Below are positions 1,460 to 32,106 of a stretch of DNA of 42,980 bases, piece by piece; the stretch's first letter is position 1; the number at the start of each line of letters is the position of its first letter. A program made the position numbers and the translations under genes. The notes beneath the pieces are model-generated. The model did not search any database, was not told the origin of the DNA, and worked only from the letters and a program-made list of their open reading frames with translations. Source of the DNA: Solirubrobacterales bacterium (lineage in GTDB: Bacteria > Actinomycetota > Thermoleophilia > Solirubrobacterales > 70-9). The stretch spans positions 1-42,980 of the forward strand of contig DASZZB010000194.1 of assembly GCA_035545115.1 (NCBI GenBank), read 5' to 3'.

Positions 1460-1460
1460 G

Positions 1461-10302: not shown

Positions 10303-11028
10303 ATGAGGAGATGGGTTGTCACCGGGGCGGGAGGCGGTATCGGAAGAGCTGTCGCGGAACTCGCCGGGAAAGCCGGCGACGCCGTGGCGATGATCGGTCG
10401 ACGGGACCTCTCCGAAGCCGCGCAAGCGGTCGAGGCCGCGGGCGGCCAGGCGCTCCCGATCCGAGTCGACCTGGCCACGGAGGACGCGCCGGAGGCCATC
10501 GCCCTGGCCGCCCGCACGGCCTTCGGCGGCATCGACGTGCTGGTCAACGGCGCCGCCCGCCACATCGGCGGTCGGCTGCCCGCCCTCGCCGACGAGGACT
10601 ACCGGACGGTGCTCGAGGTCGGCCTCGTCGCTCCCTTCCGCCTGACCCGCGCGGTCGCCGCCGAGATGGAGGCAGGCGCCGCGATCGTCAACATCGGCGC
10701 GGTCGTCGGCCTGCGGGGCTTCCCCGGCGATTCCGCCTACGGCTCCGCCAAGGGCGGCCTCGCCGGCCTGACGCAGGTGCTCGCGGTCGAGCTCGGTCGA
10801 CAGGGCATCACCGTCAACCTGGTCGTGCCCGGCTTCACCGATACCGAGATGACCGCCGAGCTGGACGACACCGTCCGCGAGCGGATCTCGCGCAGCATCC
10901 CGCTGGGCCGGACCGCGCAGCCGGTGGAGATCGCCGAGGTCGTCCACTGGGTGGCGGCGACCCCGTACATGACCGGCGCCGTGATCGCCGTCGACGGCGG
11001 CCTGATGGCCGGCTTCGGGACGAACTGA
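10303..11028 (+). CDS. short-chain dehydrogenase/reductase (SDR)
   Basis: The internal ATG at 10303 gives [17 protein letters not shown] (TGxxxGxG). NGAA and the catalytic YGSAK are present. The track start at 10186 adds a non-SDR leader. Confidence 0.85.
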
Positions 11029-11065
11029 CGATGGTTTCCTCGCGCGGCCGGAAAGGCGGGCGGCC

Positions 11066-11827
11066 ATGTTGACCGAGGGGGCCGGGGCGATCGTCTTCGG
11101 CGGCGCCTCGGGGCTCGGTGAGGCGACCGCGCGCCGTCTCGCGGCCGCTGGGGCGCGAGTCGTGATCGCCGACCTGGCGGGCGACCGGGCGCGGGCTCTC
11201 GCCGTGGAGATCGGCGGGAACGGGGCGGCGGCGAACGTGCTCGACGAGGAAGCCGTCGCCGCCGCCGTGGAGGACGCCGCGGGCGCCCCGCGCGGGCTGC
11301 GGATCTGCGTCAACTGTGCCGGGATCGGCCCGCCCGGGAAACTGGTCGGGCGCGACGGCCCGACCCCGCTGGCGAGCTTCAGCAAGATCATCGAGGTGAA
11401 CCTGATCGGGACGATCAACACGCTGCGGCTCGCCGCCGCCCGGATGCTCGAGAACGATCCCGAGGAGGGCGGCGAGCGTGGAGTCTGCGTCAACACCGCC
11501 TCGGTCGCTGCCTTCGACGGCCAGGTGGGCCAGGTCGCCTACAGTGCCTCGAAGGCCGGGATCGCCGCGATGACGCTGCCGCTGGCGCGCGAGCTCGCGA
11601 GCCGCGGGGTCCGCGTCGTGACGATCGCCCCCGGCCTCTTCGATACCCCGCTCCTCGCCTCCCTCCCCCAGGAGGTCAAAGACTCGCTCGGGGCCTCGGT
11701 GCCGTTTCCTCCCCGGCTCGGTCGCCCGAGCGAGTACGCCGACCTGGTCGCCGCGATCGTCTCCAACCAGATGCTGAACGGGGAGACGATCCGGCTCGAC
11801 GGGTCGATCCGGATGGCGCCGCGTTGA
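11066..11827 (+). CDS. SDR, 3-hydroxyacyl-CoA dehydrogenase type-2-like
   Basis: 253 aa. It has [14 protein letters not shown], the catalytic YSASKAG, and an [10 protein letters not shown] segment typical of HSD10/FadB2-like SDRs. Confidence 0.8.
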
Positions 11828-11869
11828 GCGGCGCCATCCGACGCCTTGGAACTGGAACCTGTCTCGAGA

Positions 11870-13045
11870 TCAGATGCGCTGGATCAGCGTCCCGGTCCCG
11901 AGACCGCCGCCGCAGCACATCGTGACCAGGCCGAGTTCGGTGTCGGATCGCTCGAGCTCGTGCAGCAGCGTCGCGATCAACCGCGCCCCGCTCGCGCCCA
12001 GTGGATGGCCGAGCGCGATCGCGCCGCCGTTGACGTTTACCCGTTCCAGGTCCGGCTCGATCTCGCGGCTCCAGGCGGCGACCACCGAGGCGAACGCCTC
12101 GTTGACCTCGAAGCGATCGACGTCGCCGGCGCCGATCCCGTTGCGGGTGAAGAGCTCCCGCGTGGCCGGGATCGGCCCGGTAAGCATCGTCACCGGATCG
12201 ACCCCCACCGTGGTCTGGTCGACCAGGCGCGCCCGTGGCTCGAGGCCGAGCGCGGCGGCCTTCTCGCGCGCCATCAAGATCACGGCGGCGGCGCCGTCGG
12301 AGATCTGGGAGGAGTTGCCGGCGGTGATCTTCCCGTCCTCCTTGAAGGCCGGCCGCAGGGCCGCCAGCCCCTCGGTCGTCGTCTCGCGCAGGCCCTGGTC
12401 GATGGTCTGCAAGCCGTCGGCGGTGCGGATCGGCGCGATCTCGCTCTGGAAGCGTCCCTCGTCGGTGGCGCGGCGGGCCAGTTGCTGGGAGCGCAGGCCG
12501 ATCTCGTCGAGCTCGGCTCGCCCGATCTCCCACCGGTCGGCGATCATCTCTGCCGCGAGGCCCTGGTTGACGAGGTCGTAACGGGCCGCCAGCTGCGGCG
12601 TGATCGGCGAGCCATAGCGCTCGTTCGACTCGGCGACGGCGGCGAAGGAGATGTGGCCCATGTGCTCGACCCCGGCGCCGACCGCGACATCGTGGACCCC
12701 GGCCGCGATCAAGCCGGCGGCGACGTTGACCGCCTGTTGGCCGGACCCACACTGCGTGTCGAGCGTGTTCGCCGGCACCTCCATCGGCAGGCCCGCCTCG
12801 AGCCACGCGTCGCGGGCGATGTTGAGGCTCTGCTCGCCGATCTGCTGCACGCACCCGGCGAATACGTTGCCGACCTCGGCCGGGTCGATCCCGGCCCGCT
12901 CGATCACCGCGCCGTAGGCGTGAGCAAGCAGGTTGGAGGGGTGCAGATCACGGTAGATCCCCTTCTCGGGGTGGCCGCGGCCGATCGCGGTGCGGACCGC
13001 CGCGACGATCACCACCTCGCGGCTGCCGTTGTCATGCATCGTCAT
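11870..13045 (-). CDS. acetyl-CoA C-acetyl/acyltransferase (thiolase)
   Basis: It has the active-site region LDTQCGSGQQAV and the C-terminal NVNGGAIALGHPLGASGARL and MCCGGGLG motifs. I placed the start at ATG 13045 (MTMHDNGSREVVIVAA). Confidence 0.9.
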   Translation of the reverse strand: MTMHDNGSREVVIVAAVRTAIGRGHPEKGIYRDLHPSNLLAHAYGAVIERAGIDPAEVGNVFAGCVQQIGEQSLNIARDAWLEAGLPMEVPANTLDTQCGSGQQAVNVAAGLIAAGVHDVAVGAGVEHMGHISFAAVAESNERYGSPITPQLAARYDLVNQGLAAEMIADRWEIGRAELDEIGLRSQQLARRATDEGRFQSEIAPIRTADGLQTIDQGLRETTTEGLAALRPAFKEDGKITAGNSSQISDGAAAVILMAREKAAALGLEPRARLVDQTTVGVDPVTMLTGPIPATRELFTRNGIGAGDVDRFEVNEAFASVVAAWSREIEPDLERVNVNGGAIALGHPLGASGARLIATLLHELERSDTELGLVTMCCGGGLGTGTLIQRI

Positions 13046-13240: not shown

Positions 13241-14338
13241 TCAGGCGGCCGCCGTCTGCTTCGCGGTGACCTTGCGCAGCTCCGGGACCACCTTGGAGCC
13301 GATCAGCTTGAGGCTTTCTTCGACCAGCTCGAAGGGCATCCCGGCGTAGGACACCGCCATCGCCGGGCGGAGTTCGCCGGTCGTCGCAACCCGCTTCTTC
13401 CAGCCCTCGACGATTTCCTCGGGCGTGCCCCATAGCTGGGACTGCACGAAGCTCTCGGCCGCCGCCTCGAGCCCGGCCTCGCGGATCGCGTCGGCGCCCG
13501 CCTGGTAGGCGGTGTAACCCTGGGTTTCACCCCAGTGCGAGCCATCGAAATCGTAATGTTTGATCACCGTCAGGTAGTACTTCGAGAGGTACTCGCGGGC
13601 AACTTCCTCGGCGACCTTGGGGTCTTCGTGGCAGAAGGTGAAGTCGGAGAAGATCGGTGCGCCTGGATCTTTGCCGGGATGCACTTCGTGGAAGCGATTG
13701 CGCCACGCTTCGACGCCTTCATGGTGCTGCTCCCAGGGAAGCTGGACGAAGGACATCATCGTGCCACCGATGTTCGCCGCGGCGATGCCCGAATCGGGCG
13801 ACATCGCCACCGAGTTGAAGCCCCGCTCGCGCCAGTTGACCGGCTGCCAGGGGTGAATCTCCACCCGTGACTGCTTGAAGTAGGGCGTGTCGTACTCGGC
13901 GACGCCGGTTTCGAGGATCTCGAGGATGATCTCCGAGGCGGTGTCGAACCGCTCGCGCGCCTCCGACATCGGGACCCCGAACGCCTCGTACTCCTTTTTT
14001 GCCAGCCCGCGGCCGAAGCCGAGCATGAATCGGTCGCCGAGCAGGATCTCCAGCATCGCGACCTTCTCCGCCACCCGCGTCGGCTGAACCCACCAGGGCA
14101 GGATGATCGCGCCGGTGCCGATCTTGATCCGGTCGGTCTTCGCGGCCAGATAGGCACACCACTGCATGTTGTCGGGCATCATCGCGTAACCGGGATCGAA
14201 GTGGTGCTCGGGAGCCTGGACGAAGTCCATCCCCACTTCCTCGGCGAGGATCGCGATGTCCGTCTCGCGGCGGAACATCTCCGCGTCGGTCATCCCCTCG
14301 CGGGTGTTCTGGAAAATGAATTGCAGACCGCATTCCAT
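13241..14338 (-). CDS. LLM-class flavin/F420-dependent oxidoreductase
   Basis: 365 aa with the luciferase-like fold pattern (FVQAPEHHF, GTGAIILPW). A GGAGGAC RBS lies upstream. Confidence 0.85.
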   Translation of the reverse strand: MECGLQFIFQNTREGMTDAEMFRRETDIAILAEEVGMDFVQAPEHHFDPGYAMMPDNMQWCAYLAAKTDRIKIGTGAIILPWWVQPTRVAEKVAMLEILLGDRFMLGFGRGLAKKEYEAFGVPMSEARERFDTASEIILEILETGVAEYDTPYFKQSRVEIHPWQPVNWRERGFNSVAMSPDSGIAAANIGGTMMSFVQLPWEQHHEGVEAWRNRFHEVHPGKDPGAPIFSDFTFCHEDPKVAEEVAREYLSKYYLTVIKHYDFDGSHWGETQGYTAYQAGADAIREAGLEAAAESFVQSQLWGTPEEIVEGWKKRVATTGELRPAMAVSYAGMPFELVEESLKLIGSKVVPELRKVTAKQTAAA

Positions 14339-14365
14339 CGAAAGTCCTCCGTATTTTCTTGGGTG

Positions 14366-15211
14366 CTACCTGACGTAGACGTCGGGCCACGCTTCGCGCC
14401 GTGGGATCACGCCTACGGTCTCGTTAACTTCGTTGTGCCAGAGGCGCGAGAACAGCTTGTCCTCGAGCGGCTTGAGCTCACTGGCGGCGTCGCTGCGGAA
14501 CTGCTCCAGGGCGGCCGCGTTCTCGACCCAGATATGGGCCATGCCGTCCCAGGGATCCATGAACTTTTCCCGTCGCACGACCTCGGCCGGAGCCTCGGTC
14601 TCGCCCCACACCTCCGACTTGAAGAACTTTTCCCGCACGTCGCTGCTCTCGTCGGGAATCGTGAAGTTCAGTGTGTAGCCGAAGAGGTCGTCGCACTTCG
14701 AGTAGAGCGGTGCGTACTCCTCGGCCCAGATCTTGCGGAATTCCTCATCGCTGAGTCCGTCGGCCTTCGCGCCCCACTGGATGATCTTGGTGATGAAGCG
14801 CTCCGGCCTCACCACGGGTACGATCTCGGTCTCTTCGAGGCCGAATTGGTACGGGATCCCGATGTATAGCCACTCGCTGTCCTCGGCGAGGACCGGGTTC
14901 AGCGCTTCCGACTGCATCCCATCGGGTCCGACCCGATCTTCGACCTCGCCGGCGTTCGAGTCGTAGTAGTCCTGCTCGTTGTCGAACCACAACTCCGAGT
15001 ATCCGTCCCACATCTTGATGAACCCGTCGGGCGGGTTGTCGCTGGCGAACAGATTTTTTTCGTCGCTCCCCGGCGCCCACACACAGTTCACATAGCCACG
15101 GATCTTCGGTAGGCGTCTGGCGATCGATACGTGGAATCCGGCATGACCTTCTCGGTACTGGTCATGCGTCAGGTACGGCGGACGCTCGCAAAAGCCGATG
15201 ATCTTGTGCAC
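14366..15211 (-). CDS. tandem EthD-like (dimeric alpha/beta-barrel) domain protein
   Basis: 281 aa. Two halves each begin with an EthD-like pattern: MHKIIGFCERPPYLTHDQYREGHAGFH...RGYVNCVW and ITKIIQWGAKADGLSDEEFRKIW...GYTLNF. The family call is from pattern memory only. Confidence 0.55.
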   Translation of the reverse strand: MHKIIGFCERPPYLTHDQYREGHAGFHVSIARRLPKIRGYVNCVWAPGSDEKNLFASDNPPDGFIKMWDGYSELWFDNEQDYYDSNAGEVEDRVGPDGMQSEALNPVLAEDSEWLYIGIPYQFGLEETEIVPVVRPERFITKIIQWGAKADGLSDEEFRKIWAEEYAPLYSKCDDLFGYTLNFTIPDESSDVREKFFKSEVWGETEAPAEVVRREKFMDPWDGMAHIWVENAAALEQFRSDAASELKPLEDKLFSRLWHNEVNETVGVIPRREAWPDVYVR

Positions 15212-15293
15212 TGTCAGACCTGTCCCTTCTCCATTCCCGAAATTAACCCTCCGGTGGCGATGATAGGTCTGAGTCGAGTGCCGCCATCGCGCT

Positions 15294-16871
15294 TCATCCG
15301 GAGGGCTTTGTGCGTTCCTCCAAATCGCCTGATCCCATCGTCACCTGGGTGAGCTCGTCCGCGCTGAGATCGCCGTAGCGATAGGTCGCGCAGGGCTTGC
15401 CGTCGACGAGGACCACGATCCGGTCGCAGAGAGCGAGCAACTCCTCCGACTCGGTCGAGGCGACCAGCGCCGCGGCACCCGCCTCGACGGCGTCCCGGAC
15501 GATCCGGTGGATCGACGCCTTGGCCCCCACGTCGACGCCCTGGGTCGGCTCGTCGAGCACCAGCAGCTTCGGATTCAGCCGCATCGCGCGCGCCATCATC
15601 ACCTTCTGCTGGTTGCCGCCGCTCAACTCCAGTAGCTGCGCCTCCGATCTCCGCGGCACCACGTCAAGCTTGTCGAGCCAGGCCCGAACTTCGGCCCGCT
15701 CGCGACTCTTGGACAGCCCCAGCGGCCCGTAGGCGGGATCGAGATTGCAGATCGTCAGGTTTTCGCGGATCCGCATCGATGGCAGCGCCGCCTTCGAAAG
15801 CCGATCGGCGGGGACGAAGGCCATCCCGCTGCGGAAGCAGACGTCGGGCCGCTCGGCCGGGATCACCCGCCCCTCGAGGCGAACCTCGCCCTCGCGACTG
15901 CGGCCGCCGCAGACCAGTTCCGTCACCTCCTCGCGGCCGGAGCCGGTGACGCCCGCGATGCCGACGATCTCGCCGGCGCCGATATCGAGGTCGAGGCTCT
16001 CGAGCACCTCGCCGCGCAGCCCGCGGACGCTGAAGACGGTGCCCTCGTCGGTTTGCGGCTCATGCGGGTGGACGGGCGCCAGGGCATCCAGTTCCCGGCC
16101 GATCGTCAACTCGGTCAGCGAGCGCTCGGTCAGTTCGGCGGCGGCCATCGTCGCCACCCGCTCGCCGTCGCGGAGCACGGTTATCCGGTCGGCGATCTCG
16201 AAGACCTCGGCGAAGCGGTGGGAGACGTAGACGATCGCCACGCCGCGATCCCGCACCCGCCGGATCACCTCGAACAGGCGCCGCACTTCGGCGGCGGGAA
16301 GCGAGGCCGTGGGCTCGTCGAGGACGAGGACGCGAACCTTGTCCGACCAGTCCTCGAGCGCCCGCGCGATCGCGACGCCGGTCCGCTGCGATGCGGTAAG
16401 CCTGTAGATCGGGGTCTTCGGGTTGAAGTCGAAGCCGAGCTCGGCCAGGGTCTGCCTGCCGGCCCGTGCCTCCCGTCGCCAGGAGATGGTCCCGAGCTTG
16501 CCGCGGTGATACCCGCGGCCCAGTGCCAGGTTGTCGAGCGCACTCAGGGTCGGCGCCAGCCCGAGGTCCTGATGGACGAAACGCAACCCCGCGTCGGCGG
16601 CCGCGGTCGAGTTGCCGAGGTCGAGCGGGGCGCCGGCGACGAGCGCCGACGCTCCCCGGTCGGGCTGGTGGTAGCCGGCGAGGACCTTGATCAGCGTCGA
16701 CTTGCCGGACCCGTTCTGCCCGACCAAGGCGTGCACCTCGCCCGGCCGCAGGTCGAAGTCGACGTGGTCGAGCGCCATCTGTCCGGTGAAGGTCTTGGAG
16801 AGACCTCTGATCGCCAGCACCTCCCGGCCGGCGGTTCGTGCACCCGAACCGTTTGCCGATGCCGTCGTCAT
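15294..16871 (-). CDS. sugar-type ABC transporter ATP-binding protein (two fused ATPase domains)
   Basis: The start at ATG 16871 forms an ATGA overlap with the permease stop. Walker A motifs GQNGSGKST and GVTGSGRE, signature LSGGNQQK and Walker B LLVLDEPT are present. The upstream 181 codons of the track ORF overlap the permease gene. Confidence 0.9.
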   Translation of the reverse strand: MTTASANGSGARTAGREVLAIRGLSKTFTGQMALDHVDFDLRPGEVHALVGQNGSGKSTLIKVLAGYHQPDRGASALVAGAPLDLGNSTAAADAGLRFVHQDLGLAPTLSALDNLALGRGYHRGKLGTISWRREARAGRQTLAELGFDFNPKTPIYRLTASQRTGVAIARALEDWSDKVRVLVLDEPTASLPAAEVRRLFEVIRRVRDRGVAIVYVSHRFAEVFEIADRITVLRDGERVATMAAAELTERSLTELTIGRELDALAPVHPHEPQTDEGTVFSVRGLRGEVLESLDLDIGAGEIVGIAGVTGSGREEVTELVCGGRSREGEVRLEGRVIPAERPDVCFRSGMAFVPADRLSKAALPSMRIRENLTICNLDPAYGPLGLSKSRERAEVRAWLDKLDVVPRRSEAQLLELSGGNQQKVMMARAMRLNPKLLVLDEPTQGVDVGAKASIHRIVRDAVEAGAAALVASTESEELLALCDRIVVLVDGKPCATYRYGDLSADELTQVTMGSGDLEERTKPSG

Positions 16872-17956
16872 AACGCGGAGCTCTGGCGGCCGGAGCGCAC
16901 CGCCAACGCCACCGCGATGATCAGCACGGCGCCGTTGATGACTTCGTCCATCCAGAATTGCGCACCGAGAAGCTGCACACCTTTCACCCCGGTCGCCAGC
17001 ACGTAGACCGCGACGAGCGTCCCCGGCACGTTGACGTTCCCCTCCTTGAACTGGGTCGCCCCGAGGAAGACCGCCGCGAACGCGGGCAGCAGATATGGAG
17101 CGCCCGCATTCAGGGAGGTAGAGCCGATCCGCATCAGGAAGATGATCCCGGCGATCGTGGCGATGCCGGCGGAGATGACCAGCCCGATCGCGGTGAGGCG
17201 TCCGACCCGTACACCGGCCAGCCGCGCGGCATCCGCGTTCGAGCCCGCCGCGTAGAGGTATCGGCCTGTCTGGCGGTACTCGAGCAGGTACCAGACCAGG
17301 CCGGCGATGACGAGCATGTAGAAGAACGGCATCGGGATGGTGAACAGCGTTCCCCTGCCCAGGCTGGTGAAGCCTTTGGGGATCTGGGTGATCACTTCGC
17401 CACCGCTGATCCACTGCTGCATCGCGACCAGGATCGATCCGGAGCCGAGGGTCGCGATGAAAGAGTTCACCTTCAGCACGCCGACCACGTAAGAGTTGAA
17501 GACCCCGATCAGGATGCCCGCGAGGAGCGTCAGCGCGATCGCGAACGCCGGCGACACATTCATTTTGGCCATCAGCGAGGCGACGACGATCACCGCGATG
17601 CCGAAGGCCCCGCTGATCGAGAGGTCGAACTGCCGCGCGGCGATCGGGCCTACCAGCGCCAGCGCCATGATCGCGGTCACCGCCTGTTCGCCCATGATGG
17701 TGCGGGCGGTGTTCATGCTGAGGAAGGTGTGGGGCTCGAGGATCCCGAACAGGATGATCAGCCCGGCCCAGATGAAAAGCAGGCTCGCGTTGCGGACCCC
17801 GGAGGCCAGGGCATGGCCGACCGCGGCGAGGCTCAGGCCGCCGCCGCCCCGGCCACCGCTCGGGGCGGTAACCGCGGCGCCACCCGCGGCTCCCCCCTCG
17901 GGGGGAGCCGCGGACGTGCCCTCGGGAGGGAGGGTCTCGGACGAGTCGCGACTCAT
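16868..17956 (-). CDS. ABC transporter permease (ribose/xylose-type, BPD family 2)
   Basis: 362 aa with multiple hydrophobic helices and a low-complexity N-terminal tail. It sits between the binding-protein and ATPase genes. Confidence 0.85.
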   Translation of the reverse strand: MSRDSSETLPPEGTSAAPPEGGAAGGAAVTAPSGGRGGGGLSLAAVGHALASGVRNASLLFIWAGLIILFGILEPHTFLSMNTARTIMGEQAVTAIMALALVGPIAARQFDLSISGAFGIAVIVVASLMAKMNVSPAFAIALTLLAGILIGVFNSYVVGVLKVNSFIATLGSGSILVAMQQWISGGEVITQIPKGFTSLGRGTLFTIPMPFFYMLVIAGLVWYLLEYRQTGRYLYAAGSNADAARLAGVRVGRLTAIGLVISAGIATIAGIIFLMRIGSTSLNAGAPYLLPAFAAVFLGATQFKEGNVNVPGTLVAVYVLATGVKGVQLLGAQFWMDEVINGAVLIIAVALAVRSGRQSSAL

Positions 17957-17990
17957 CTCTGACAGTGCTCCCGTCGGTGCAAACCGTTGA

Positions 17991-19211
17991 TCACTTACTC
18001 ACCTGCCACAGTTCTTCGTATTCCTGCTTGAGCGTCGGCGGCAGGTTGTTCCAGGTCTCTTCGGTCGCGTTAGGCGGCAGATTTTCTTTGGTGAAGATCT
18101 GCGTCATCAGCGGCACTTCGTCCTGCTGTGGCATGCCGACCGCGTGTCGGGCAACGGCGTCTATGCCCTGGTAGGCAGCGGATAGCTGCGAGTACGCCAT
18201 CACCCCCAGGAAATTCCCTTCTTCGACGCTCTTCATCGCTTCGGGAGTGGCGTCGTTGCCCATGATCTTGACCTTGCCCAGCAGACCGGCTTCGCGGAGG
18301 GCCGCTTCGAGGCCGGTGGCCATGACCATGTCCTGCAGGATCACGTAGTTCATCGACGGGTCGCGCTGCAGTTCGCCGATGATGATCGACGGCAATTTGG
18401 TCCCGGTGTCTTCCGCCTGAGCGGTGATCGTCTTCGTCTTGCATTCCGGGCAGTTGTCGGCGACCGTTTTCGACGTCGTTTCGATGATCCGCGTCGAAAG
18501 CGGGAATCCCGCGTACTGGACAAGCAGGGCGTCGCCTTTTCCTTCGCTGTCGGCGATGAACCAGTTGGCGGTCGCTTCCGACATCGTGTCGAAGGCACCC
18601 TGCTGGTAATCGACCTCGATGAACGGCGGCGTAGCTTTTCCGGTCAATTCGCCCAGCTGGGTAACGATCGGGATTCCGGCATCCGCCGCGGCTTCTGCCG
18701 CGGGTTCATAGGTTTCGCGGGCGATGCCGTCGATGAGGATCGCGTCAGGATGTTCGGAGACGGCCTGCGAGATTTTCGCCAGGTCGTCTTCCGGGGCGCC
18801 GCTGAAGGCCACCTTCTTGGTCGTCCAGCCGAGCAGCTTGCCGGCTTCTTCGACGCCGTCACGCCAGCCTTCGCAAACCGAGAGCTCACAGGAGAGCGCG
18901 ACGACGTGGAGGCCGGTCGGGGGCGCTTCTTTCAGCGGCACGGTGTTCCCGACGTTGGGCGGCGGCTTGAAATATGGGGCAGAAGCCTTTTCCGCCGCGG
19001 CCACCACTTCCGACGTGCCCGATTCGCTCTTGGCTGAGCTTTCTTCGCTGCTTTCCGCGCCGGCGGCTTCCGTGCTTTCGCCGCTACTGGAACCTCCACC
19101 GCCACAGGCGGCGATGAGCCCACCTAGCGCAATGATCGCCAAGCCCACTGAAAGGGCGGCGAGCAGTCGCCGCACGCGTCGGTGGTCCCCGGGACGAAAC
19201 GGCTCACCCAT
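17991..19211 (-). CDS. ABC transporter substrate-binding lipoprotein (periplasmic binding protein type I)
   Basis: 406 aa. It has a signal peptide with a lipobox (LIAAC-GGGG), a Ser/Glu-rich linker, and then a PBP-like body. It is the first gene of the transporter string. Confidence 0.8.
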   Translation of the reverse strand: MGEPFRPGDHRRVRRLLAALSVGLAIIALGGLIAACGGGGSSSGESTEAAGAESSEESSAKSESGTSEVVAAAEKASAPYFKPPPNVGNTVPLKEAPPTGLHVVALSCELSVCEGWRDGVEEAGKLLGWTTKKVAFSGAPEDDLAKISQAVSEHPDAILIDGIARETYEPAAEAAADAGIPIVTQLGELTGKATPPFIEVDYQQGAFDTMSEATANWFIADSEGKGDALLVQYAGFPLSTRIIETTSKTVADNCPECKTKTITAQAEDTGTKLPSIIIGELQRDPSMNYVILQDMVMATGLEAALREAGLLGKVKIMGNDATPEAMKSVEEGNFLGVMAYSQLSAAYQGIDAVARHAVGMPQQDEVPLMTQIFTKENLPPNATEETWNNLPPTLKQEYEELWQVSK

Positions 19212-19521
19212 AGTTCTCTCCTCCTGCTTTGCCCATCGTTTTCTCCTCTTGTTTTGAAGCCCGGGAGGAATCTAGGATCTGGCCGGAACAGAGTCGGCAA
19301 ATACGCAGCGCCCTCTTTGGCGGGGCCTACAAACTCTCCGTCGACGCCGCTTCCTTCAGGCGGTTTCCCGGCCTGGAGGACCTACGAGCAATCGGCGAAA
19401 CTCGCGTGTCCGGCCGGCGAGCGCCAGACCGCGATGTGCCCCGCCCCCGCTCAGCGTGCCCGGGAGCCGTGCGCGGAGGGACGGCCTGCCTCAAGGCTTC
19501 GGGACCCGGCTTCGACCTCCC

Positions 19522-19557
19522 CGTGCCCCAGGGCGTGCCCCAGGGCGTGCCCCAGGG
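19522..19557. repeat. 12-bp tandem repeat, 3 exact units (CGTGCCCCAGGG)
   Basis: Read directly: units at 19522-19533, 19534-19545 and 19546-19557, followed by GCA and T6. Confidence 0.9.
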
Positions 19558-19566
19558 GCATTTTTT
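19536..19566 (+). terminator. possible intrinsic terminator (TGCCCC/GGGGCA stem plus T6) formed by the tandem repeat
   Basis: TGCCCC (19536-19541) can pair with GGGGCA (19555-19560), followed by TTTTTT (19561-19566). No plus-strand gene lies upstream. Confidence 0.3.
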
Positions 19567-19593
19567 GGAGTCAGGGTTCCTCTCTCAAAGTCC

Positions 19594-19620
19594 GCAAACC
19601 CGCTTCCAAAGCGGGTTTGC
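19594..19620 (-). terminator. hairpin immediately downstream of the tRNA-Arg remnant (probable original tRNA terminator)
   Basis: GCAAACCCGC-ttccaaa-GCGGGTTTGC forms a 10-bp perfect stem and ends 1 nt from the 50-bp repeat. Confidence 0.55.
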
Positions 19621-19621
19621 G

Positions 19622-19671
19622 CGAACGCGCCCGACTGGATTCGAACCAGTGACCTTCGGTTTCGTAGACCG
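19622..19671. repeat. left copy of the 50-bp perfect direct repeat (att-like; 3' part of tRNA-Arg)
   Basis: Identical base for base to 26129-26178. The flanking bases differ on both sides. Confidence 0.95.
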
Positions 19672-19700
19672 GGCCGGGGGCTCGGCTGGGCTACGGGGGG
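19626..19700 (-). pseudogene. pseudo-tRNA-Arg (intact 3' part, degenerate 5' part)
   Basis: The 3' 46 nt equal those of the tRNA at 26133-26206. In the 5' part, 15 of 18 acceptor/D-stem positions are retained, with a 1-nt indel, a disrupted D-arm and two acceptor-stem mismatches, so it cannot form a clean cloverleaf. Confidence 0.7.
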
Positions 19701-20073
19701 CTCGGTTTCAAGCGGCTTTCGCCAGATCGGACTCGGCTGAGATCGGCTGAACTCCGTGTCGCACCGTGCCCCATTTCGTGCCCCGCGGACCTCGCCGACC
19801 GATGCCGCGGCGGCGGCCGTCCGCACACGATCCGCAGAACGACCCGCACCTACCGGGTGGTCGCCACTTCTGTCGTTGCGGTCATCAGCAGCTGGACAAA
19901 GGCCACCATTCACAGGTTGAGCGGCTCCGGTTGAAAGACGAGCGTAGATCGTCCATTAAACGCTCGCCAATAACCTCGGATACGAGGCGGAGCGTCTGCG
20001 GCTTTACGAATTGCCTTCGAAGGCTTCCGGCTCGAGGGAGACCCCAAGCCACCTAACCTCCACGCCAGCGCTC

Positions 20074-23019
20074 CTATCCAGGCCGGTCATCACCGACGTC
20101 CCGGCCATCTGGGGATGCAACAAAGTCGCACTGCCCACGCATCCAGCGACCGATGAGGTCACGCTGCTCCGGGCTTAGCGTTAGCTCGGCCAAACGGCGC
20201 GCTGCCTCATCCTCAGAACCAATCTGCAGTCGATTAAGGAAAATGGGCTCGACCAGTTCGAAGAACGGATGCGGCCTGCCGAACATTTCGTCTCTAACCC
20301 ACTCTTGAGCCCGCGTCTCAGGCATCTCCTGCCTGAGACGCTGCTCAAGGTGCACCGATGCGGTGACGATCAGACCAAACAGCAAATCCGCAGGCACGGG
20401 CGCATACGCGTTCTCCGGCTCAGGCGTTAGCGGGAAGAAACCGGACGCGTCGGTCCAAGGCGGGACATGATCGAGCAGGATAGTCGCCGCTTCCTCCAGA
20501 ACCCTTATCCATTGCGCCTGTAGCACTTCTCCGCCGACCTCTCCTCGAAGCACCCACTGCGCTGCATTGGCGAGAACTGGAGAGAAGAACGCATGAGACT
20601 CGAGCACCACGTCTCGGGTTTCGAAAAGTGCCCTGAGCCCGTGCGCGTCGACTAGCTCTTTGATGTTGAGGTCGCCATCGTAGGCGAGAGATGAGGCGAG
20701 AGCGGCACTGCTTACTGAAAGCGCGCGGCGCTCCGAGCGAGTTTCACTCTTTGCGGCACTAATCGTCTCCTGCCAAAGCGCGATGCTCTCTGGCGTGGTG
20801 GCCCCACGTCCCAGTTCCGACAAGCAAAGAGACGCAGCAACTGCCGCGGGATCCGGCGATCGAATCGCCTCGAGAATCACATCAATCGTAGTGGCAGCAA
20901 CCGCCCGCTGCGTCTCCGCGCCTGCTTTGGCCAGGCCGTATCCGATCCCGGACATCGCCACACCTACGTCGAGGTCGCGCCCCCCACCTCTCGCCACCAC
21001 TGAGATGAGGAACATCGTTGCATGTCTGGTCAGCACCCGTACGACCGCAGGACTTGGCACTAGGAATGCTAGGCATTCGATTCCAAAGAGAAGTAGATGC
21101 CCTCGCTCAAGCACTTCCGCCTCATTGCTTCGGCGAATGATGTCGTTCAGAAGCTGATCAGATGCCATCAGCGTACTTTTGCTTTTCAGCTGGTACGCAA
21201 CCTGTGCGACGACCCACCATTCTCTTTTCGTAATACGTGGCGCGAGGCGCTCGCTAAGCTCTGCGGTGGTCTCCGCCGTCGCGACAAGGTGATCAGCGGC
21301 GAAATACTCCAAGAAGGTTCGATGCGTGAACTGGAAGAGCTTTTCGCCGTCAGCCGTCGTGCCGGTGTCCGTGAAGACCCAGGCGCGTCCAGCGCAAAAG
21401 TCGATGAATGCCTCTGCGGCATTACGCGCCTCGTATTCATCGTCAAATCGGAACTTAAGAAGAAACTCAACCGCCCTGTCCACCAGTTGACGCTCGCTTG
21501 CGCCGCTCTGGAGACTCTCGTGTTCGTAAATCCACAATGCCAAGAACCGCATTGCCGGCCGAATGTGCTCGGCTATCGGCAATACGGCAACGATGCCGCG
21601 GCTTCGATCCCACGTCTCGAAAAGCATTTTTGCGCACGTTTCGTACACCTCAGGTAGGTGCCGGGGCAGGTAGTTCTGGCCTAGATAGAAGTTGCACATA
21701 AGAGCAAGCAGCAATGGATTCGTCCGTAGGTCCGGCACTGCCCGACTCTCTTCAATGAAGGCCTCCGCCTTATCGTGCCGCTCTCGCGCAGAGAGGTCCT
21801 CTTCGAGCTGGAACCATTTGTGTGCGTAGCTTTCAACCTGCTCGTCGGTGAACTCGGATAGATGCACGACATCGAATACAGTCTCGTCCAAGGGGGCCTG
21901 CTCGTAGCCGACCTTGCGGGACGTAACTAAGAGACGCGCGGTTGGAAACCGGCGATGAAAACTCTCAACGTCGTCGCGCACCTGCTGGCGATGCCGGGTC
22001 TCAAGCAGCTCATCGAGCCCATCGAAGATCACCATCAGGCGCCCAGAAAGGAGCAAATATTCGATAGCTCCGCCTGGTACATCGAGTTGATATCGACTTG
22101 ATGCCACAGACTCGATATATTCGACTATCGACCAGCCGCGCTCTTTGCGCGTAGCGCTGTATTCCCTTAAAGTGACCATGACTGGCGTGACGGCTCTAAC
22201 GTCACTGCTGGCTTGTGCCCTGCCAGATAGCGTATGGCACAATTTCGCAGCAAGCGTTGACTTGCCGCCGCCAGGATCGCCCAAGACGACACCCTGCTGC
22301 AAATGATCTATCCAGCGCTGCACAGGCGTGCGTTCAGGCTCATCTTGCGTGCGCCGAACAAGATGTGGCATGACGTAAAGAAGATCAATTGGCACTCGCT
22401 CCGCACCGTAGAAGTCAGGCGGTGAAATAGTCCCGTGGCGACCATGAACCTCACGGCGTAATTCGTCCTCAAACTTGGTGACGTCGACTTGGAGCAAAGG
22501 GGTATCTCCTACGAGGTAATCCATGCGCCGCTGCATTGCTTCAAGGTGTTGCATCGTCATTTGATGACGAGCACTCGCCCTTGCCTCATGCGCCGATAGA
22601 ACGCCATCTTGGATTGCGGCCCCAACAACATTCTCCGCGGCTTCGAGCAAAGCTTCAAAAGATGCTTCTCCAATGTCCTTGGTGCCTAACTGAGCCCGAT
22701 CCCACAGCGCCAAGAACTCTGCTCGCGCCTGCTCCAAGCCTAGTCCGTGGTCGTCCAGGCGAAATACGAACATGCTCGTTACGAGGTTGCGCACCTCTGC
22801 CGAGGAAAGAAAGTCGCCGAGCGTCTCATCCGACAACTCCGCAGACCGTAGGCTTTCCATCTTCTGCGCCGTGCCCTGGATGATGGTGGCGTAACGGCCT
22901 TGTTCGCGTTTTACTGCGTCATCTACGTCTTCTGACCTGTTTGACCCGCGAAGCAGAGGGCTGAGTCCCATTTCCCAGATGGCTTGGGCCACAATGTTAA
23001 GCAGGATTGCTTCTACCAT
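20074..23019 (-). CDS. NACHT-domain NTPase (bacterial NLR-like / STAND), candidate antiphage sensor
   Basis: 981 aa. It has Walker A GDPGGGKST, Walker B LMVIFDGLDEL, LLVTSR, NPLLLALMC and the winged-helix motif FTHRTFLEYFAA. About 230 aa of N-terminal helical region and about 350 aa of C-terminal region carry no motif I recognise. Confidence 0.85.
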   Translation of the reverse strand: MVEAILLNIVAQAIWEMGLSPLLRGSNRSEDVDDAVKREQGRYATIIQGTAQKMESLRSAELSDETLGDFLSSAEVRNLVTSMFVFRLDDHGLGLEQARAEFLALWDRAQLGTKDIGEASFEALLEAAENVVGAAIQDGVLSAHEARASARHQMTMQHLEAMQRRMDYLVGDTPLLQVDVTKFEDELRREVHGRHGTISPPDFYGAERVPIDLLYVMPHLVRRTQDEPERTPVQRWIDHLQQGVVLGDPGGGKSTLAAKLCHTLSGRAQASSDVRAVTPVMVTLREYSATRKERGWSIVEYIESVASSRYQLDVPGGAIEYLLLSGRLMVIFDGLDELLETRHRQQVRDDVESFHRRFPTARLLVTSRKVGYEQAPLDETVFDVVHLSEFTDEQVESYAHKWFQLEEDLSARERHDKAEAFIEESRAVPDLRTNPLLLALMCNFYLGQNYLPRHLPEVYETCAKMLFETWDRSRGIVAVLPIAEHIRPAMRFLALWIYEHESLQSGASERQLVDRAVEFLLKFRFDDEYEARNAAEAFIDFCAGRAWVFTDTGTTADGEKLFQFTHRTFLEYFAADHLVATAETTAELSERLAPRITKREWWVVAQVAYQLKSKSTLMASDQLLNDIIRRSNEAEVLERGHLLLFGIECLAFLVPSPAVVRVLTRHATMFLISVVARGGGRDLDVGVAMSGIGYGLAKAGAETQRAVAATTIDVILEAIRSPDPAAVAASLCLSELGRGATTPESIALWQETISAAKSETRSERRALSVSSAALASSLAYDGDLNIKELVDAHGLRALFETRDVVLESHAFFSPVLANAAQWVLRGEVGGEVLQAQWIRVLEEAATILLDHVPPWTDASGFFPLTPEPENAYAPVPADLLFGLIVTASVHLEQRLRQEMPETRAQEWVRDEMFGRPHPFFELVEPIFLNRLQIGSEDEAARRLAELTLSPEQRDLIGRWMRGQCDFVASPDGRDVGDDRPG

Positions 23020-23030
23020 TCTGGGAGAGC

Positions 23031-23222
23031 CTACCTCGAGAGTAAGTCCTTATGCAACGTCGAGCGGAATGCGCTCGCACGCAGTTCGGTAATGCTGTCA
23101 GAGGCTCGCGTTACTTCGTAGGTTTCTGAAAAGCCACCGAATTCGAGTTCGTGTGCAAACCGGTCGTCGTTCGTGCTGAAGATGCTGGGGTCATGCTCGA
23201 CACTTCCGGCGGAATCAGGCAT
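23031..23222 (-). CDS. hypothetical small acidic protein (63 aa)
   Basis: The ATG at 23222 overlaps the nuclease stop (ATGCCTGA). The stop TAG lies 11 nt before the NACHT ATG. The composition is protein-like and not a GC-shadow pattern. I recognise no homology. Confidence 0.3.
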   Translation of the reverse strand: MPDSAGSVEHDPSIFSTNDDRFAHELEFGGFSETYEVTRASDSITELRASAFRSTLHKDLLSR

Positions 23223-24306
23223 TGCGACGATCCGCTGATTCGCGCGCTTCGACCAGTTGTCTCCACTCGACTTGGCCCTTTTCGCTGATCTCGATCTCTC
23301 GCAATCTGACGGCGAATGACCCCGGGAGAGTCTTCTCGACCTGGGCTGCGGAGGTCGCAGAAAATGCTGCCACCGAGCTGATGAGCTCCAAGGTACCCTC
23401 GCAAACCACGAGCAAGGTCCCATCATCGCGAAGTGCCGCTCGTTGGACTCGATCTCGATCAAGCGGCGCATGCTTCTCCGCAATCACTAAGAGCATCGCC
23501 AGGTCGGCGCCGAGCTCGGCCGCCCCTCGCGACAGCTCGAGCGCCACATCCTCGCCGACCGGGAGCTGCTTTGCCTCAACCGCGAGGACGATCGCGCCAT
23601 CCGATGCGACCCGGACGTCACCGGGATGCGGGCTGTTGATCGGCTGAAGTTCAACATCATCGAAGGCGCAGTCGAGAACCGCAGCGGCGAGGGCCTGAGC
23701 GCGTTTGCCGCCTTCCGGGGTGGCCCGAACAAATCGATCGACCATACCGACGAGGTCCTCGAGGGCGACGTCGCTTGCGAGTCTTTTGGCTGCGCGGGCT
23801 GCCTCTCGTTCGGCCGCCTGAACACCCATGCGCACACGAAGGAACGCCGCCAGGACCGAGAGGGTTTCGGTGCTCTCGATCCGATTGAGGTCCCGAAGGG
23901 CATCGAGAAAGGCTTCGTACGCTGGCCGCGCTTTTCCCGAGATCTTCGTAAATTCGTCGATTCGCGCCGGGCCCCCGAGGAAGGGTCGATTGTTGAGAGG
24001 CCAGCGTCCCTTCGCGCCCAAATCGTATCGGTCGTTGTTTTGCTGAGCGAGAAACTCGGCCGCCCTCCGCAAGCTGTAACCGCGAGGGCCCGCCGCCTCG
24101 TCCTGGGCGAGACCGTCGACCCGTGGATCGGTCGCCTTGGCAAGCAGGGCGCCGCCCAATGCAGCGATGTAGGTCTTGATTCCCAGGCCACCGAGACGCT
24201 CCACGCGCGCGATCCACAGCGCAGGCAACTCCTCGGTCGACCGCGCCAACGCGAGCGCGTTATCGAGAGTCAGAAGTAGTGCCTGGTCTTCGAGTCTGAT
24301 CCCCAT
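23215..24306 (-). CDS. PD-(D/E)xK nuclease, probable type II restriction endonuclease
   Basis: 363 aa. HPGDVRVASDGAIVLAVEAKQ fits D-x13-E-x-K. The gene lies 63 nt downstream of, and co-directional with, a C5-methyltransferase gene. Confidence 0.6.
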   Translation of the reverse strand: MGIRLEDQALLLTLDNALALARSTEELPALWIARVERLGGLGIKTYIAALGGALLAKATDPRVDGLAQDEAAGPRGYSLRRAAEFLAQQNNDRYDLGAKGRWPLNNRPFLGGPARIDEFTKISGKARPAYEAFLDALRDLNRIESTETLSVLAAFLRVRMGVQAAEREAARAAKRLASDVALEDLVGMVDRFVRATPEGGKRAQALAAAVLDCAFDDVELQPINSPHPGDVRVASDGAIVLAVEAKQLPVGEDVALELSRGAAELGADLAMLLVIAEKHAPLDRDRVQRAALRDDGTLLVVCEGTLELISSVAAFSATSAAQVEKTLPGSFAVRLREIEISEKGQVEWRQLVEARESADRRNA

Positions 24307-24369
24307 GCCACGGGAAAGCTAACTCGGCCTTCCGACACTCAGAAGATGTCAGGCTGGTCAGGCCGATCG

Positions 24370-25500
24370 CTAAGCGGCCAACGCAAGCTCCCGCGATGGC
24401 GCGCAATCGAGCCGCCTGAGTTCGTCGGCGATCGCAGTTGCGACCGCCCGCCCGAGGTCTGGGGGGACCGCGTTGCCCAGTTGAAGCTGTTGCTCCCTTC
24501 GAGACCCCAGAACCACGAAGTCGTCGGGGAAAGTCATCAGCCTCTTGACCTCCGCTACTCGCAGCCGTCTGCTCTCCCAATGAAACGGACCAACCCAAGG
24601 ACCCGGTTGACCTTGGATGGTCGGGGAAGGCTTGTCCGGGTGGAGCTTTAGAAGGAAGCTCCAGTAGCGGGACCGCCACTTGAACTGGGGTGCCTTGTGT
24701 CCGCGCTCGGCGGTCCAAAAGAGATAGTTCTCGCCAGAAGGGACTGCGTGAAGAGCATCAGCATAGGTGCCTTTGACGACCTCCTCCGGCTCAGGCGGAT
24801 TGATCTCGTCAGGAAGCGACGCAAGCGCCTGGCCGGTGCTCACGTGGACGGGCAAGTCCTCGTTCCAGCCGGTTCGCGTCTCATGCGGCCCTGAGTGCGT
24901 CGGCTCGGGCCACTCGAACTCCCACGCCTTCGCAGAGCCGGGGATGAGATCGCGACGAATGCCCACGCAGAAGAGTCTCTGTCGAAGCTGAGGGATGCCG
25001 AGGTCCGCGGCAAGGACGATCCGAAACTCGACAACGTAGCCCGCGGTGCGGGCGGCCTGGAGGAATCGCTCAAGAACCGCATGGTTCTGATTCCGATAGG
25101 CGAGGCCGTAGACGTTCTCCATCAGGAATGCCTTCGGCTGGACGCCTCGCAGCATGCGGATGTACTCGTCCAGCAGGCTTGCGCGCGGGTCTTCTCCGGC
25201 ACGCTTGTAGGCGAGCCAATAGCCGGACTTGGAAAAGGGGGTGCAGGGAGGTCCACCATGCAAAAGGGATACCTCCCCTGATTCGAGGCCGCTTCGCTCG
25301 AGCAGATCCTGCGGCTCCGTCTCAAGGATGTCGCTGAACACCGCCTCCTCCCCCAACTGCGGGAAGAACTGAGAGCGGTTTGCGAGCATCGTTTTCCGTG
25401 CGGTCTCATCCCACTCGACAACCGCCTGCGTGTCGAAGCCGGCCGCCTCGCAGCCGAGATCGAGGCCGCCCGCCCCAGAGAAGAGGGAGATCGCATCCAT
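24370..25500 (-). CDS. DNA (cytosine-5)-methyltransferase
   Basis: It has motif I LFSGAGGLDLG, motif IV GGPPCTPFS, motif VI FLMENV, motif VIII QLRQRLF and motif X GNAVPP. I placed the start at ATG 25500 (MDAISLFSG...); the track start at 25629 is less likely. Confidence 0.9.
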   Translation of the reverse strand: MDAISLFSGAGGLDLGCEAAGFDTQAVVEWDETARKTMLANRSQFFPQLGEEAVFSDILETEPQDLLERSGLESGEVSLLHGGPPCTPFSKSGYWLAYKRAGEDPRASLLDEYIRMLRGVQPKAFLMENVYGLAYRNQNHAVLERFLQAARTAGYVVEFRIVLAADLGIPQLRQRLFCVGIRRDLIPGSAKAWEFEWPEPTHSGPHETRTGWNEDLPVHVSTGQALASLPDEINPPEPEEVVKGTYADALHAVPSGENYLFWTAERGHKAPQFKWRSRYWSFLLKLHPDKPSPTIQGQPGPWVGPFHWESRRLRVAEVKRLMTFPDDFVVLGSRREQQLQLGNAVPPDLGRAVATAIADELRRLDCAPSRELALAA

Positions 25501-25531
25501 GCTTCCCAACCTAGAATCTGCCCCCGATGGA

Positions 25532-25975
25532 ATGACCGCCCAGCGATCGATCATCACCGTTCCCAAAGCGCCTGAAGCTTCCTCGCCGGCGGTGAGGGCG
25601 GTCATGAAGGGAAACCGCAAGCGGGACACTCGTCCCGAGCTGGCGATCCGCTCGGAGCTTCATCGGCGCGGATTCCGCTACCGAGTCGACGCCCGGCCGA
25701 TCATCACGCTGCGCTGCAAAGCCGACATCGTCTTCCGGCCCAAGAAGGTGGCCGTGTTTGTGGATGGCTGCTTTTGGCATGGATGCCCGGACCACGGAAC
25801 GAGCCCGAAGACCAACGCAGGCTATTGGCACGCAAAGATCGGTCGAAATGTGGAGCGAGACCGAATGAACGAGGCCGAGCTTGTCGCTGCCGGCTGGACG
25901 GTGATCAGGGTCTGGGAGCACGAGAGTCCGGGGGATGCATCGGAGCGAATTGCGCGGGTTCTGAAAGGCGCGTGA
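25532..25975 (+). CDS. vsr: very-short-patch repair endonuclease (Vsr)
   Basis: RDTRPELAIRSELHRRGFRYRV and FVDGCFWHGCP are Vsr hallmarks. It is divergent from the C5-MTase. An alternative ATG at 25499 would overlap the MTase start codon. Confidence 0.85.
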   Translation: MTAQRSIITVPKAPEASSPAVRAVMKGNRKRDTRPELAIRSELHRRGFRYRVDARPIITLRCKADIVFRPKKVAVFVDGCFWHGCPDHGTSPKTNAGYWHAKIGRNVERDRMNEAELVAAGWTVIRVWEHESPGDASERIARVLKGA

Positions 25976-26128
25976 CTCCAAAAAAAGTGCAGGGAAGTGG
26001 GCCGGATCGCAAGGCCAGCTAAGCCGCGTCTTCGACCTAACCGTGTCCCATGCCGTGCCCCACGGCTCTAATTCGTCTTCAATCTGAGGCTTCGGAGCCA
26101 CCCAAACTCCGCAGGCAAGCGAAATTCC

Positions 26129-26178
26129 CGAACGCGCCCGACTGGATTCGAACCAGTGACCTTCGGTTTCGTAGACCG
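26129..26178. repeat. right copy of the 50-bp perfect direct repeat (inside the intact tRNA-Arg)
   Basis: Identical to 19622-19671. Confidence 0.95.
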
Positions 26179-26206
26179 ACGCTCTATCCGGCTGAGCTAC
26201 GGGCGC
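26133..26206 (-). tRNA. tRNA-Arg (anticodon ACG)
   Basis: The reverse complement folds by hand as GCGCCCG-TA-GCTC-AGCCGGATA-GAGC-G-TCGGT-CTACGAA-ACCGA-AGGTC-ACTGG-TTCGAAT-CCAGT-CGGGCGC-G. CCA is not encoded. Confidence 0.9.
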
Positions 26207-31855: not shown

Positions 31856-31937
31856 AGCGCTTGTCCGATGTGAGAAAGCGCAAGAAACCGTGGAGAGATT
31901 TCTCCGTGGCCGGGTGCCCCCACCGTCGCCGCGGCCA

Positions 31938-32026
31938 CGGAGAGGGAGGGATTCGAACCCTCGAGAGAGCTTGCGCCCCCTACTCGCTTAGCAGGCGAGT
32001 GCCTTCAGCCACTCGGCCACCTCTCC
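31938..32026 (-). tRNA. tRNA-Ser (anticodon GCU)
   Basis: The reverse complement has acceptor GGAGAGG/CCTCTCC, anticodon stem CTCGC/GCGAG with loop CTGCTAA, a long variable arm and T-loop TTCGAAT. Confidence 0.9.
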
Positions 32027-32106
32027 GGGTCCGCGAGCCGGATCGCCCGTCCCGCGAAGGACCGATTGTAGGTACTGACCGGGGATCGCGGGATTAGGCT
32101 GACGCG

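Follow-up and report, generated by a model that had tools for sequence, protein, structure and literature searches.

The subject of this analysis is a low-G+C island of defence genes at a tRNA-Arg(ACG) gene, found in a 42,980-nt stretch of DNA (the window) from a Solirubrobacterales bacterium (70-9; Thermoleophilia; assembly GCA_035545115.1, contig DASZZB010000194.1, positions 1-42,980, forward strand). The intact tRNA gene occupies 26133-26206 on the minus strand (ARAGORN; Rfam RF00005, 71 bits) and shares 94-100% identity over 73-74 nt with the tRNA in the same position of ~25 related loci. An earlier note on this sequence had described a perfect 50-bp direct repeat whose right copy falls within this gene, and both points held: 19622-19671 and 26129-26178 (both minus strand; family D3, 100%) are identical over 50 bp, and the right copy comprises 4 nt besides the part of the tRNA that starts at the anticodon stem and ends with the discriminator base. 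A 27-mer of the repeat occurred twice in the window and not once in 100 shuffles. The left copy forms the 3' part of a pseudo-tRNA (19626-19700) that scored 29.3 bits with Rfam, just at the threshold, with acceptor, D and anticodon-stem pairs broken; its 5' part matched the intact tRNA at 15 of 18 positions with a 1-nt length difference, as the note had reported. Diverged homology, also noticed before, continues downstream of both copies (33 of 40 positions alike, family D1). As observed earlier, a strong hairpin follows the left copy only (19594-19620; -23.5 kcal/mol; z = -5.1; equalled by none of 200 shuffles), whereas the equivalent stretch after the true tRNA gave z = -0.04.

Four real genes lie between the repeats, and all are of DNA-modification or defence type, in agreement with the note. 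Nearest the intact tRNA is a gene for a Vsr very-short-patch repair endonuclease (25430-25975, plus strand; Pfam PF03852, 6.5e-17; TIGR00632, 7e-39, above cut-off), the true start of which is probably near 25560-25600. It is followed by a C5 cytosine DNA methyltransferase (24370-25629, minus strand; PF00145, 2e-55; TIGR00675, above cut-off) and a SacI-family type II restriction endonuclease (23215-24306, minus strand; PF09566, 1.5e-17; PADLOC REase_II, 9.5e-29). Adjacent endonuclease, 5-methylcytosine methyltransferase and Vsr genes constitute a type II restriction-modification (R-M) system with Vsr, and the same trio stands at the same site in two related loci, L002 and L022, to which the methyltransferase is 92-93% and the endonuclease 85% identical at the amino acid level. 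The fourth gene encodes a 981-aa NACHT (STAND) NTPase (20074-23019, minus strand; PF05729, 1.9e-14), a putative antiviral NLR-like protein; it is the lowest-GC part of the island (G+C 0.574; G+C at third codon positions, GC3, 0.62) and was present in none of the fetched relatives. Compared with curated antiphage models, it reached 29.9 bits with EruA (NCBIfam), against a cut-off of 1000, and only E ~0.003 in PADLOC. In this small set, the SacI-like enzyme would cut unmethylated DNA while the C5 methylase shields the host, Vsr would repair T:G mismatches arising from deaminated 5-methylcytosine, and the NACHT NTPase would serve as a putative NLR-like antiviral sensor. The SacI site GAGCTC occurs 41 times in the window against ~30 expected; this absence of avoidance is uninformative. 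The enzyme may recognize a different sequence, or the system may have left no avoidance signal.

Base composition sets the island apart from its surroundings. G+C is 0.603 between the repeats compared with 0.709 at 1-13000 and 0.720 from 26207 to the end, and GC3 is 0.62-0.74 in island genes compared with 0.90-0.96 in flanking core genes. The composition shift suggested from hand counts of short samples was thus borne out by a scan, while the counts themselves proved rough: the NACHT gene has 57% G+C overall, and the flanking genes have 70-73%, not 77%. The low-GC tract also reaches left beyond 19.6 kb, to about 13.3-13.5 kb (G+C 0.656).

Both repeat copies adjoin conserved blocks with short, regularly spaced motifs, designated here P and P' arms. 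In general, the P arm (~115 nt) consists of two 9-nt TGGGGCACG motifs 12 nt apart, a ~70-nt spacer and a degenerate tRNA 5' half, followed by the tRNA 3' half (alignment A1). The P arm of the window (19672-19785, minus strand) has the motif pair CGGGGCACG/TGGGGCACG at 19765-19785, the conserved ~70-nt spacer and the degenerate tRNA 5' half at 19672-19700, and its profile matched 19673-19784 in nhmmer with E = 1.5e-31. The general order of the P' arm is a TGGGGCACG motif pair, then GGTGAGGTCGAAG, then AGCCTTGAG (alignment A2). P' arm no. 1 (25983-26128, minus strand), behind the intact tRNA, carries a TGGGGCACG-type pair with a 12-nt period (26042-26062), then GGTTAGGTCGAAGACG, then GCCTTGCGA; it matched the profile over 25983-26126 (E = 2.6e-35) and aligns with the post-tRNA DNA of L002, L022, L029 and L007. 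P' arm no. 2 (19468-19621, minus strand) lies behind the pseudo-tRNA and there the terminator-like hairpin (19594-19620) precedes three TGGGGCACG repeats (19522-19554), GGGGAGGTCGAAGCCG and AGCCTTGAGG (nhmmer E = 6.1e-25; A2). The earlier note had taken this hairpin and the DNA to its left for the original tRNA terminator and chromosome; the match to the P' arm profile overturns that part of the model. Because 19468-19621 is a P' arm, the pseudo-tRNA marks an internal junction of a tandem array, and P' arm no. 2 is the start of an older neighbouring unit.

Specificity of the motifs resides only in their spacing: pairs at 12-nt distance occur four times in the window, all inside arms, against none expected, whereas single TGGGGCACG motifs with one mismatch are as frequent as expected (19 compared with 18.9). 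The P-arm reading frame stays open (GHEMGHGATRS...) in nearly all copies, in a frame equivalent to the 3' end of an integrase gene (int). A structured RNA gene was considered as an explanation for the P arm and rejected, the RNAalifold covariation term being only -1.05 and two-sided changes being confined to the tRNA T stem. Most P arms also contain a short inverted repeat, GATyy - loop - rrATC (19708-19728 in the window; columns ~57-75 of alignment A5), whose sequence and register vary and which RNAalifold missed. It may be a palindrome bound by a protein, or else the terminator that once served the lost int gene.

Relatives were collected with the neighbouring DUF4442 protein as query, in a scan limited to one genome for each species, which returned 38 loci (all loci are numbered with the prefix L) from Solirubrobacterales and Actinomycetota metagenome-assembled genomes at 80-90% identity. 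A metagenome scan with the P-arm block gave 10 extra loci and protein searches added more; the fetched loci are a small sample, mostly from fragmented metagenome assemblies. This type of arm was found in ~18 loci overall. Among 16 non-redundant copies, columns were 79-98% identical across the P arm and 98-99% across the core, with sharp edges: mean pairwise identity dropped to 28%, the random level, in the 80 nt upstream and to 33% in the 80 nt downstream. The degenerate tRNA 5' half carries the same characteristic changes in all P-arm loci. Conserved P' arms were seen in the window (twice), L002, L022, L029, L007 and L060; the form with hairpin and motifs stands behind the true tRNA in L029 and L007 and behind a pseudo-tRNA in L060 and L062. 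L007 is a unit-bearing complete chromosome (OZ241364.1).

Upstream of the tRNA, the order pyruvate kinase, enoyl-CoA hydratase, DUF4442 protein, ABC ATPase, tRNA-Arg(ACG) is the same in ~25 species. Downstream, the DNA is different in every relative, and the left-hand genes of the window were found in none of them; the tRNA is therefore a hypervariable spot at which no simple empty site can be demonstrated. The empty-site comparison proposed in the note accordingly gave no such site: about 25 of the 38 loci share the upstream synteny and none shares the left flank. Most relatives lack the island. Only one tRNA-Arg is present where there is no island, and it belongs to the upstream synteny described above. 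At least nine relatives, on the other hand, have extra tRNA 3'-half copies 2-9 kb downstream, with DNA of lower G+C in between. In L002 and L022 the Vsr-methylase-endonuclease trio lies directly behind the tRNA (84-93% amino acid identity), followed by a Ser/Thr kinase in L002 and by GmrSD and a kinase-helicase in L022. The DNA between the copies in relatives is thus differing, non-housekeeping cargo, which supports the note's preference for a foreign insert at tRNA-Arg over a tandem duplication.

Several loci contain more than one junction. A pseudo-tRNA followed by a further P' arm also occurs in L060, L062 and L065, up to five tRNA-Arg fragments lie within 6 kb in L062 (reverse strand, oriented 1141-6253), and L079 (10115-16325) has an array of tRNA-Arg 3' fragments with three P arms in a row. 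These pseudo-tRNAs with following P' arms, together with the L062 and L079 arrays, identify the loci as tandem arrays. The arrays of L062 and L079 hold three to five tRNA-Arg 3' fragments within a few kb and two P-arm subtypes; some fragments begin at the anticodon stem (~45 nt) and others comprise only the T arm and acceptor (~25 nt). Several integrase families, each crossing over at a different point, thus seem to have accumulated at tRNA-Arg. Cores are perfect in most units, and deviating cores carry paired T-stem changes found in the true tRNA-Arg of other relatives, a pattern consistent either with recombinational exchange with the tRNA or with gene conversion.

Further observations concern the tRNA genes of the relatives. 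The true tRNA-Arg genes of L003/L068, L062, L063 and L064 differ by paired T-stem changes (CACTGG/CCAGTC, CATTGG/CCAATC, CACAGG/CCTGTC). In L068 the T-stem variant of the pseudo-tRNA (11355-11399 in L003/L068) differs from that of the true tRNA of the same locus (2141-2214), a difference that would arise if elements, on integrating, put a tRNA 3' half of their own in place of the resident one. In L005 (6135-6177) and L011 (2787-2829) the tRNA-Arg breaks off at the identical base (after ...CTACGAAACCG, ~position 43) and unrelated DNA follows; ARAGORN found no tRNA at either truncated gene. Either an element crossed over there without rebuilding the tRNA or the assembly was joined at a repeat.

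Integrase-bearing sites with a comparable plan were found in phage-like contigs (L067, L075 and L077). One informative case, L067, emerged when viral contigs were scanned for the motif pair; most other matches of that scan, considered as att sites, turned out to be coding WGTxWGT repeats. In L067 the gene for a 395-aa tyrosine integrase ends in a TGGGGCAC pair (peptide VGHAVGH; 6200-6267 region) and is followed by the 3' half of another tRNA (anticodon loop TTCCCAA), a terminator hairpin and a second TGGGGCAC pair. L075 and L077, which carry integrases of the same family, show the same plan with different motifs: the 12-nt repeats paired at the 3' end of int reappear ~120 nt past the tRNA 3' half (4050-4116 and 4282-4303 in L075). 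L075 looks phage-like, with an ERF recombinase and helix-turn-helix regulators. Most integrases of the L067 family end in 4-residue tandem repeats (KLPAKLPA and VGHAVGH among others; proteins P0121-P0223). The paired 12-nt repeats of this family lie inside the last 15-25 int codons, vary in sequence from member to member and recur in the P' arm. Other integrase families at the tRNA-Arg studied here have motif pairs of their own with an 11-12-nt period: at the ends of P0001/P0004-type contigs, int is followed by a CCTTCCCTT pair and this by the tRNA-Arg 3' half, and the L025-type integrase (L025, L008, L004 and a remnant in L010) is accompanied by arms with GTGTCNCAT-like pairs. Since the window arms share the layout of L067, L075 and L077, we read the TGGGGCACG pairs as putative arm-type integrase-binding sites. 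On the same grounds of sequence layout, the P arm would be what remains of a lost integrase gene, namely its 3' end and the region downstream of it.

The island itself has no recombinase gene, as the earlier note had stated. No recombinase, transposase or excisionase domain was detected in it by Pfam searches of open reading frames (ORFs) of at least 130 aa and of intergenic ORFs at E up to 1, and Phage_integrase, resolvase and rve domains in particular were absent. The note had called 19701-20073 free of ORFs and suggested looking there for integrase remnants. Strictly, that stretch holds mechanical ORFs of 96 and 140 aa, but neither has a family match. Remnants were sought throughout the window and none was found by tblastn with L025- and L067-type integrases, by jackhmmer, or in its six-frame translation with hidden Markov models built from 103 and 120 homologues (two families). 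A non-coding spacer (19786-20073) separates the NACHT gene from the P arm and lies where phage-like relatives would have their integrase gene; its ORFs match no family, and it shows no similarity to the DNA upstream of the P arm in other loci (28% mean pairwise identity, as for random sequence).

Nor was an integrase found beside the P arm in any of the ~18 loci. The genes adjoining P arms encode NACHT, a Ser/Thr kinase, a BNR-repeat protein, a DyP peroxidase, secreted-looking proteins, a helicase, an RHS protein, a ThiF-family protein, a LuxR-type STAND ATPase, AbiV, and TetR regulators with large proteins of unknown function. The sole integrase inside a TGGGGCACG-armed island is that of L003/L068; it is of the CCTTCCCTT type and belongs to a different unit fused to the armed one. 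Immediately after the tRNA, before this integrase, comes a pair of genes for an IrrE-like Peptidase_M78 protein and a DUF4411 protein (2462-4089), and further into the same island are an insertion sequence fragment and an extracytoplasmic function sigma factor. The smallest unit (L016/L058) was considered as a carrier of a hidden recombinase and rejected: its 438-aa and 188-aa proteins have signal-peptide-like N-termini and no family match. Searches of wider collections gave no lead either, with no match for the tRNA-Arg 3' half in viral contigs, none for the L067 integrase in GenBank phages by tblastn, and only tRNA-like matches, in Vibrio, for the arm DNA in plasmids. Because no matching integrase was found, binding of an integrase to TGGGGCACG has been deduced from the layout only.

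Since the arm layout matches that of tyrosine-integrase attP sites, we consider it likely that the segment is an integrase-less, att-bounded unit of the cis-mobilizable element (CIME) type in a tandem array, which originated through a tyrosine integrase at tRNA-Arg and carries a small defence set. By this account, a tyrosine integrase would have recombined the tRNA gene (attB) with an attP made up of P arm, tRNA-like core and P' arm, each arm bearing a pair of 9-nt TGGGGCACG repeats 12 nt apart. Integration would have rebuilt the tRNA beside the P' arm, so that the right repeat copy is now the core of attL (25983-26206), and would have left the P arm and the displaced tRNA 3' half at the far end as attR (19622-19785, with the left repeat copy as its core). 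Both sites are retained, attL as core plus P' arm and attR as P arm plus core. An integrase of its own next to the att site, which would mark a tRNA-targeting integrative genomic island of the tyrosine-integrase type, is missing, and the NACHT, endonuclease, methyltransferase and Vsr genes are the sole genes of the unit, as the gene content of a CIME demands; a unit without integrase or excisionase but with both att sites is a CIME-type island. It would now move only with a matching integrase supplied elsewhere, or inside a larger composite. We infer the integration event itself from this arrangement, and any present-day mobility would be hypothetical. The insertion model of the note is thereby upheld in outline: the repeat is the 3' part of the tRNA, the composition shifts, the arms recur in ~18 loci and the attP layout matches.

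Several observations weigh against the CIME interpretation. The phage-like attP sites lack the tRNA-like 5' half, and their motif pair lies closer to the core. A matching integrase was not found in the 43-kb window or the fetched loci, and no protein ending in the P-arm peptide was found among 1.84 billion representatives or in 5.8 billion clusters, the matches being tiny spurious ORFs over further P arms. No empty site was shown, as no close enough relative was available. Decayed copies of the unit exist (L079, L010). Finally, the insertion may be old and now immobile, because the island has diverged about as much as the core genome: the block shared with L002 and L022 (P' arm, Vsr, methylase and endonuclease) and the P arm are 79-90% identical at the nucleotide level, and core genes 84-89%. 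The same similarity in divergence led us to reject a recent transfer between the window and L002/L022.

A livelier version of events is possible, though we hold it to be unlikely: the units could form an active satellite or cassette system in which an integrase acting in trans, from the genome or from a visiting phage or element, shuffles selected integrase-less units. Put differently, tRNA-Arg(ACG) might be an integron-like platform of the Solirubrobacterales that exchanges defence genes by way of an unlinked chromosomal or helper-phage tyrosine integrase, a proposal to which we give the same low credence. Such activity would account for motif pairs and a core that are nearly invariant in 16 instances with random flanks and edges at the same nucleotide, for two P-arm subtypes in tandem at one locus, for cores that are perfect in most instances despite P-arm divergence of up to ~20%, and for the lack of an integrase beside every one of the ~18 P arms; arm-adjacent cargo is also often of the defence or conflict kind (R-M, GmrSD, AbiV, helicase, RHS, STAND ATPases). 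No candidate integrase was identified, however, the islands in the window, in L002 and in L022 seem to date back to the divergence of their species, and there are decayed members. Perfect cores can also be explained by gene conversion with the nearby tRNA, and the sampling is small and drawn mostly from fragmented metagenome assemblies.

Alternatively, the arms could be relics of one ancient integration between which cargo has since been swapped by homologous recombination with no integrase involved. Different cargo between the same conserved arms, the sharp edges and the missing integrase are all compatible with such replacement, as is the tRNA-P'-Vsr-methylase-endonuclease block common to three species whose P-arm-side part differs. 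We nevertheless regard it as quite improbable. The anchors are short (~115-220 bp) and 79-90% identical between species, which makes them a poor RecA-type substrate, and replacement leaves unexplained why, within the arms, the 9-nt motif pairs are conserved best, why tandem arrays contain several arm subtypes together with fragments from other integrase families, and why the arms match integrase-carrying attP sites. A tandem duplication of the tRNA-Arg locus, with one copy decayed and native genes in between, would explain the recognizable 5' half of the pseudo-tRNA (15/18) and the homologous sequence behind both copies (family D1), but can be excluded for practical purposes: the intervening genes are of foreign composition and defence type and are absent or replaced in the closest relatives, the pseudo 5' half recurs with its specific changes, together with the P arm, in units of ~16 other loci, the shared P arm matches the layout of a phage-type integrase gene 3' end, and relatives without islands have one tRNA-Arg.

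To the left of P' arm no. 2, and beginning directly after it, lies a tract with the putative cargo of the older unit (13241-19211, minus strand). By Pfam, it encodes a sugar ABC transporter (binding protein, permease and ATPase), an EthD-domain protein and a luciferase-like monooxygenase; its G+C (0.656) and GC3 (0.77-0.89) are intermediate. None of these genes was found in the 9 kb downstream of the tRNA in any relative, and no distal att site, third tRNA fragment or further P arm was found in the window. The tract was probably carried by an older unit that has lost its far att site, and the composite island probably extends to about 13.3 kb. Within it, a mechanical ORF of 706 aa for the ABC ATPase (15294-17414) overlaps the permease ORF (16868-17956) by ~550 nt; its ABC domain begins at residue 215, and translation probably starts well beyond the first GTG. 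On the other side of tRNA-Arg, at a distance of 6-10 kb, are tRNA-Ser(GCT) (31937-32027) and tRNA-Ser(TGA) (35933-36022), whose position is kept in most relatives; no sign of islands was seen beside either of them in the window.

Integrase-less islands next to tRNA genes are common and are usually dismissed as decayed. The present locus lets their build-up be followed: in a soil lineage that has hardly been studied, a single tRNA has collected tandem att-bounded units from three or more integrase families. If the arms are still used, defence genes would be exchanged here by trans-mobilized cassettes; if they are not, the locus is a well-resolved case of accretion and decay. It also calls for caution with island predictors that set the border of an island at the first tRNA fragment.

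Phage lambda with its P and P' arm sites, mycobacteriophage L5 with paired arm sites and pSAM2 are tyrosine-integrase systems with arm-type sites. As in tRNA integrators of the lambda/L5 type, the identity block in the window begins in the anticodon region and ends at the tRNA 3' end, each arm has a pair of short direct repeats ~70-130 nt away from the core, and the P' arm supplies the rebuilt tRNA with a terminator hairpin; int abuts the P arm in L067, L075 and L077. Unlike them, the window unit has no int or xis, its P arm adds a degenerate tRNA 5' half, and its TGGGGCACG sites are putative. With defence islands at hotspots it shares variable defence genes at one conserved position beside a tRNA (R-M with Vsr and NACHT here, GmrSD and AbiV in relatives), but the units at this locus are individually bounded by recognizable att arms, so that hotspot build-up can be read from the sequence. 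Integron cassettes resemble these units by analogy only, as arrays of short recombinase-less units with a conserved recombination site and unrelated cargo. They differ in that the present locus has no IntI gene, attI/attC sites or Pc promoter, its sites are tRNA-derived cores with arm repeats, and window-type units are multi-gene with their own orientation.

The closest likeness in structure is to CIMEs. According to the passages of PMC5704250 that cite Pavlovic 2004 and Bellanger 2011, CIMEs and tandem accretion at att sites were originally reported from Streptococcus thermophilus islands related to the integrative and conjugative elements (ICEs) ICESt1 and ICESt3. Neither conjugation genes nor remnants of them were seen in the window unit, and its arms resemble phage-type integrase attP sites (L067, L075) rather than those of an ICE. 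It also differs in that no functional partner element with a matching integrase was seen, the ~18 P arms having no integrase beside them, and in its host, an uncultured Thermoleophilia lineage. The parallel lies in a unit that stands in tandem with others at a tRNA 3' end, with internal junctions that are chimeric att sites, and this structure fits the published definition of a CIME and the published model of tandem accretion (PMC5704250). An integrase-less island at a tRNA is thus an already known kind of element, the CIME, and the unit of the window is a further example.

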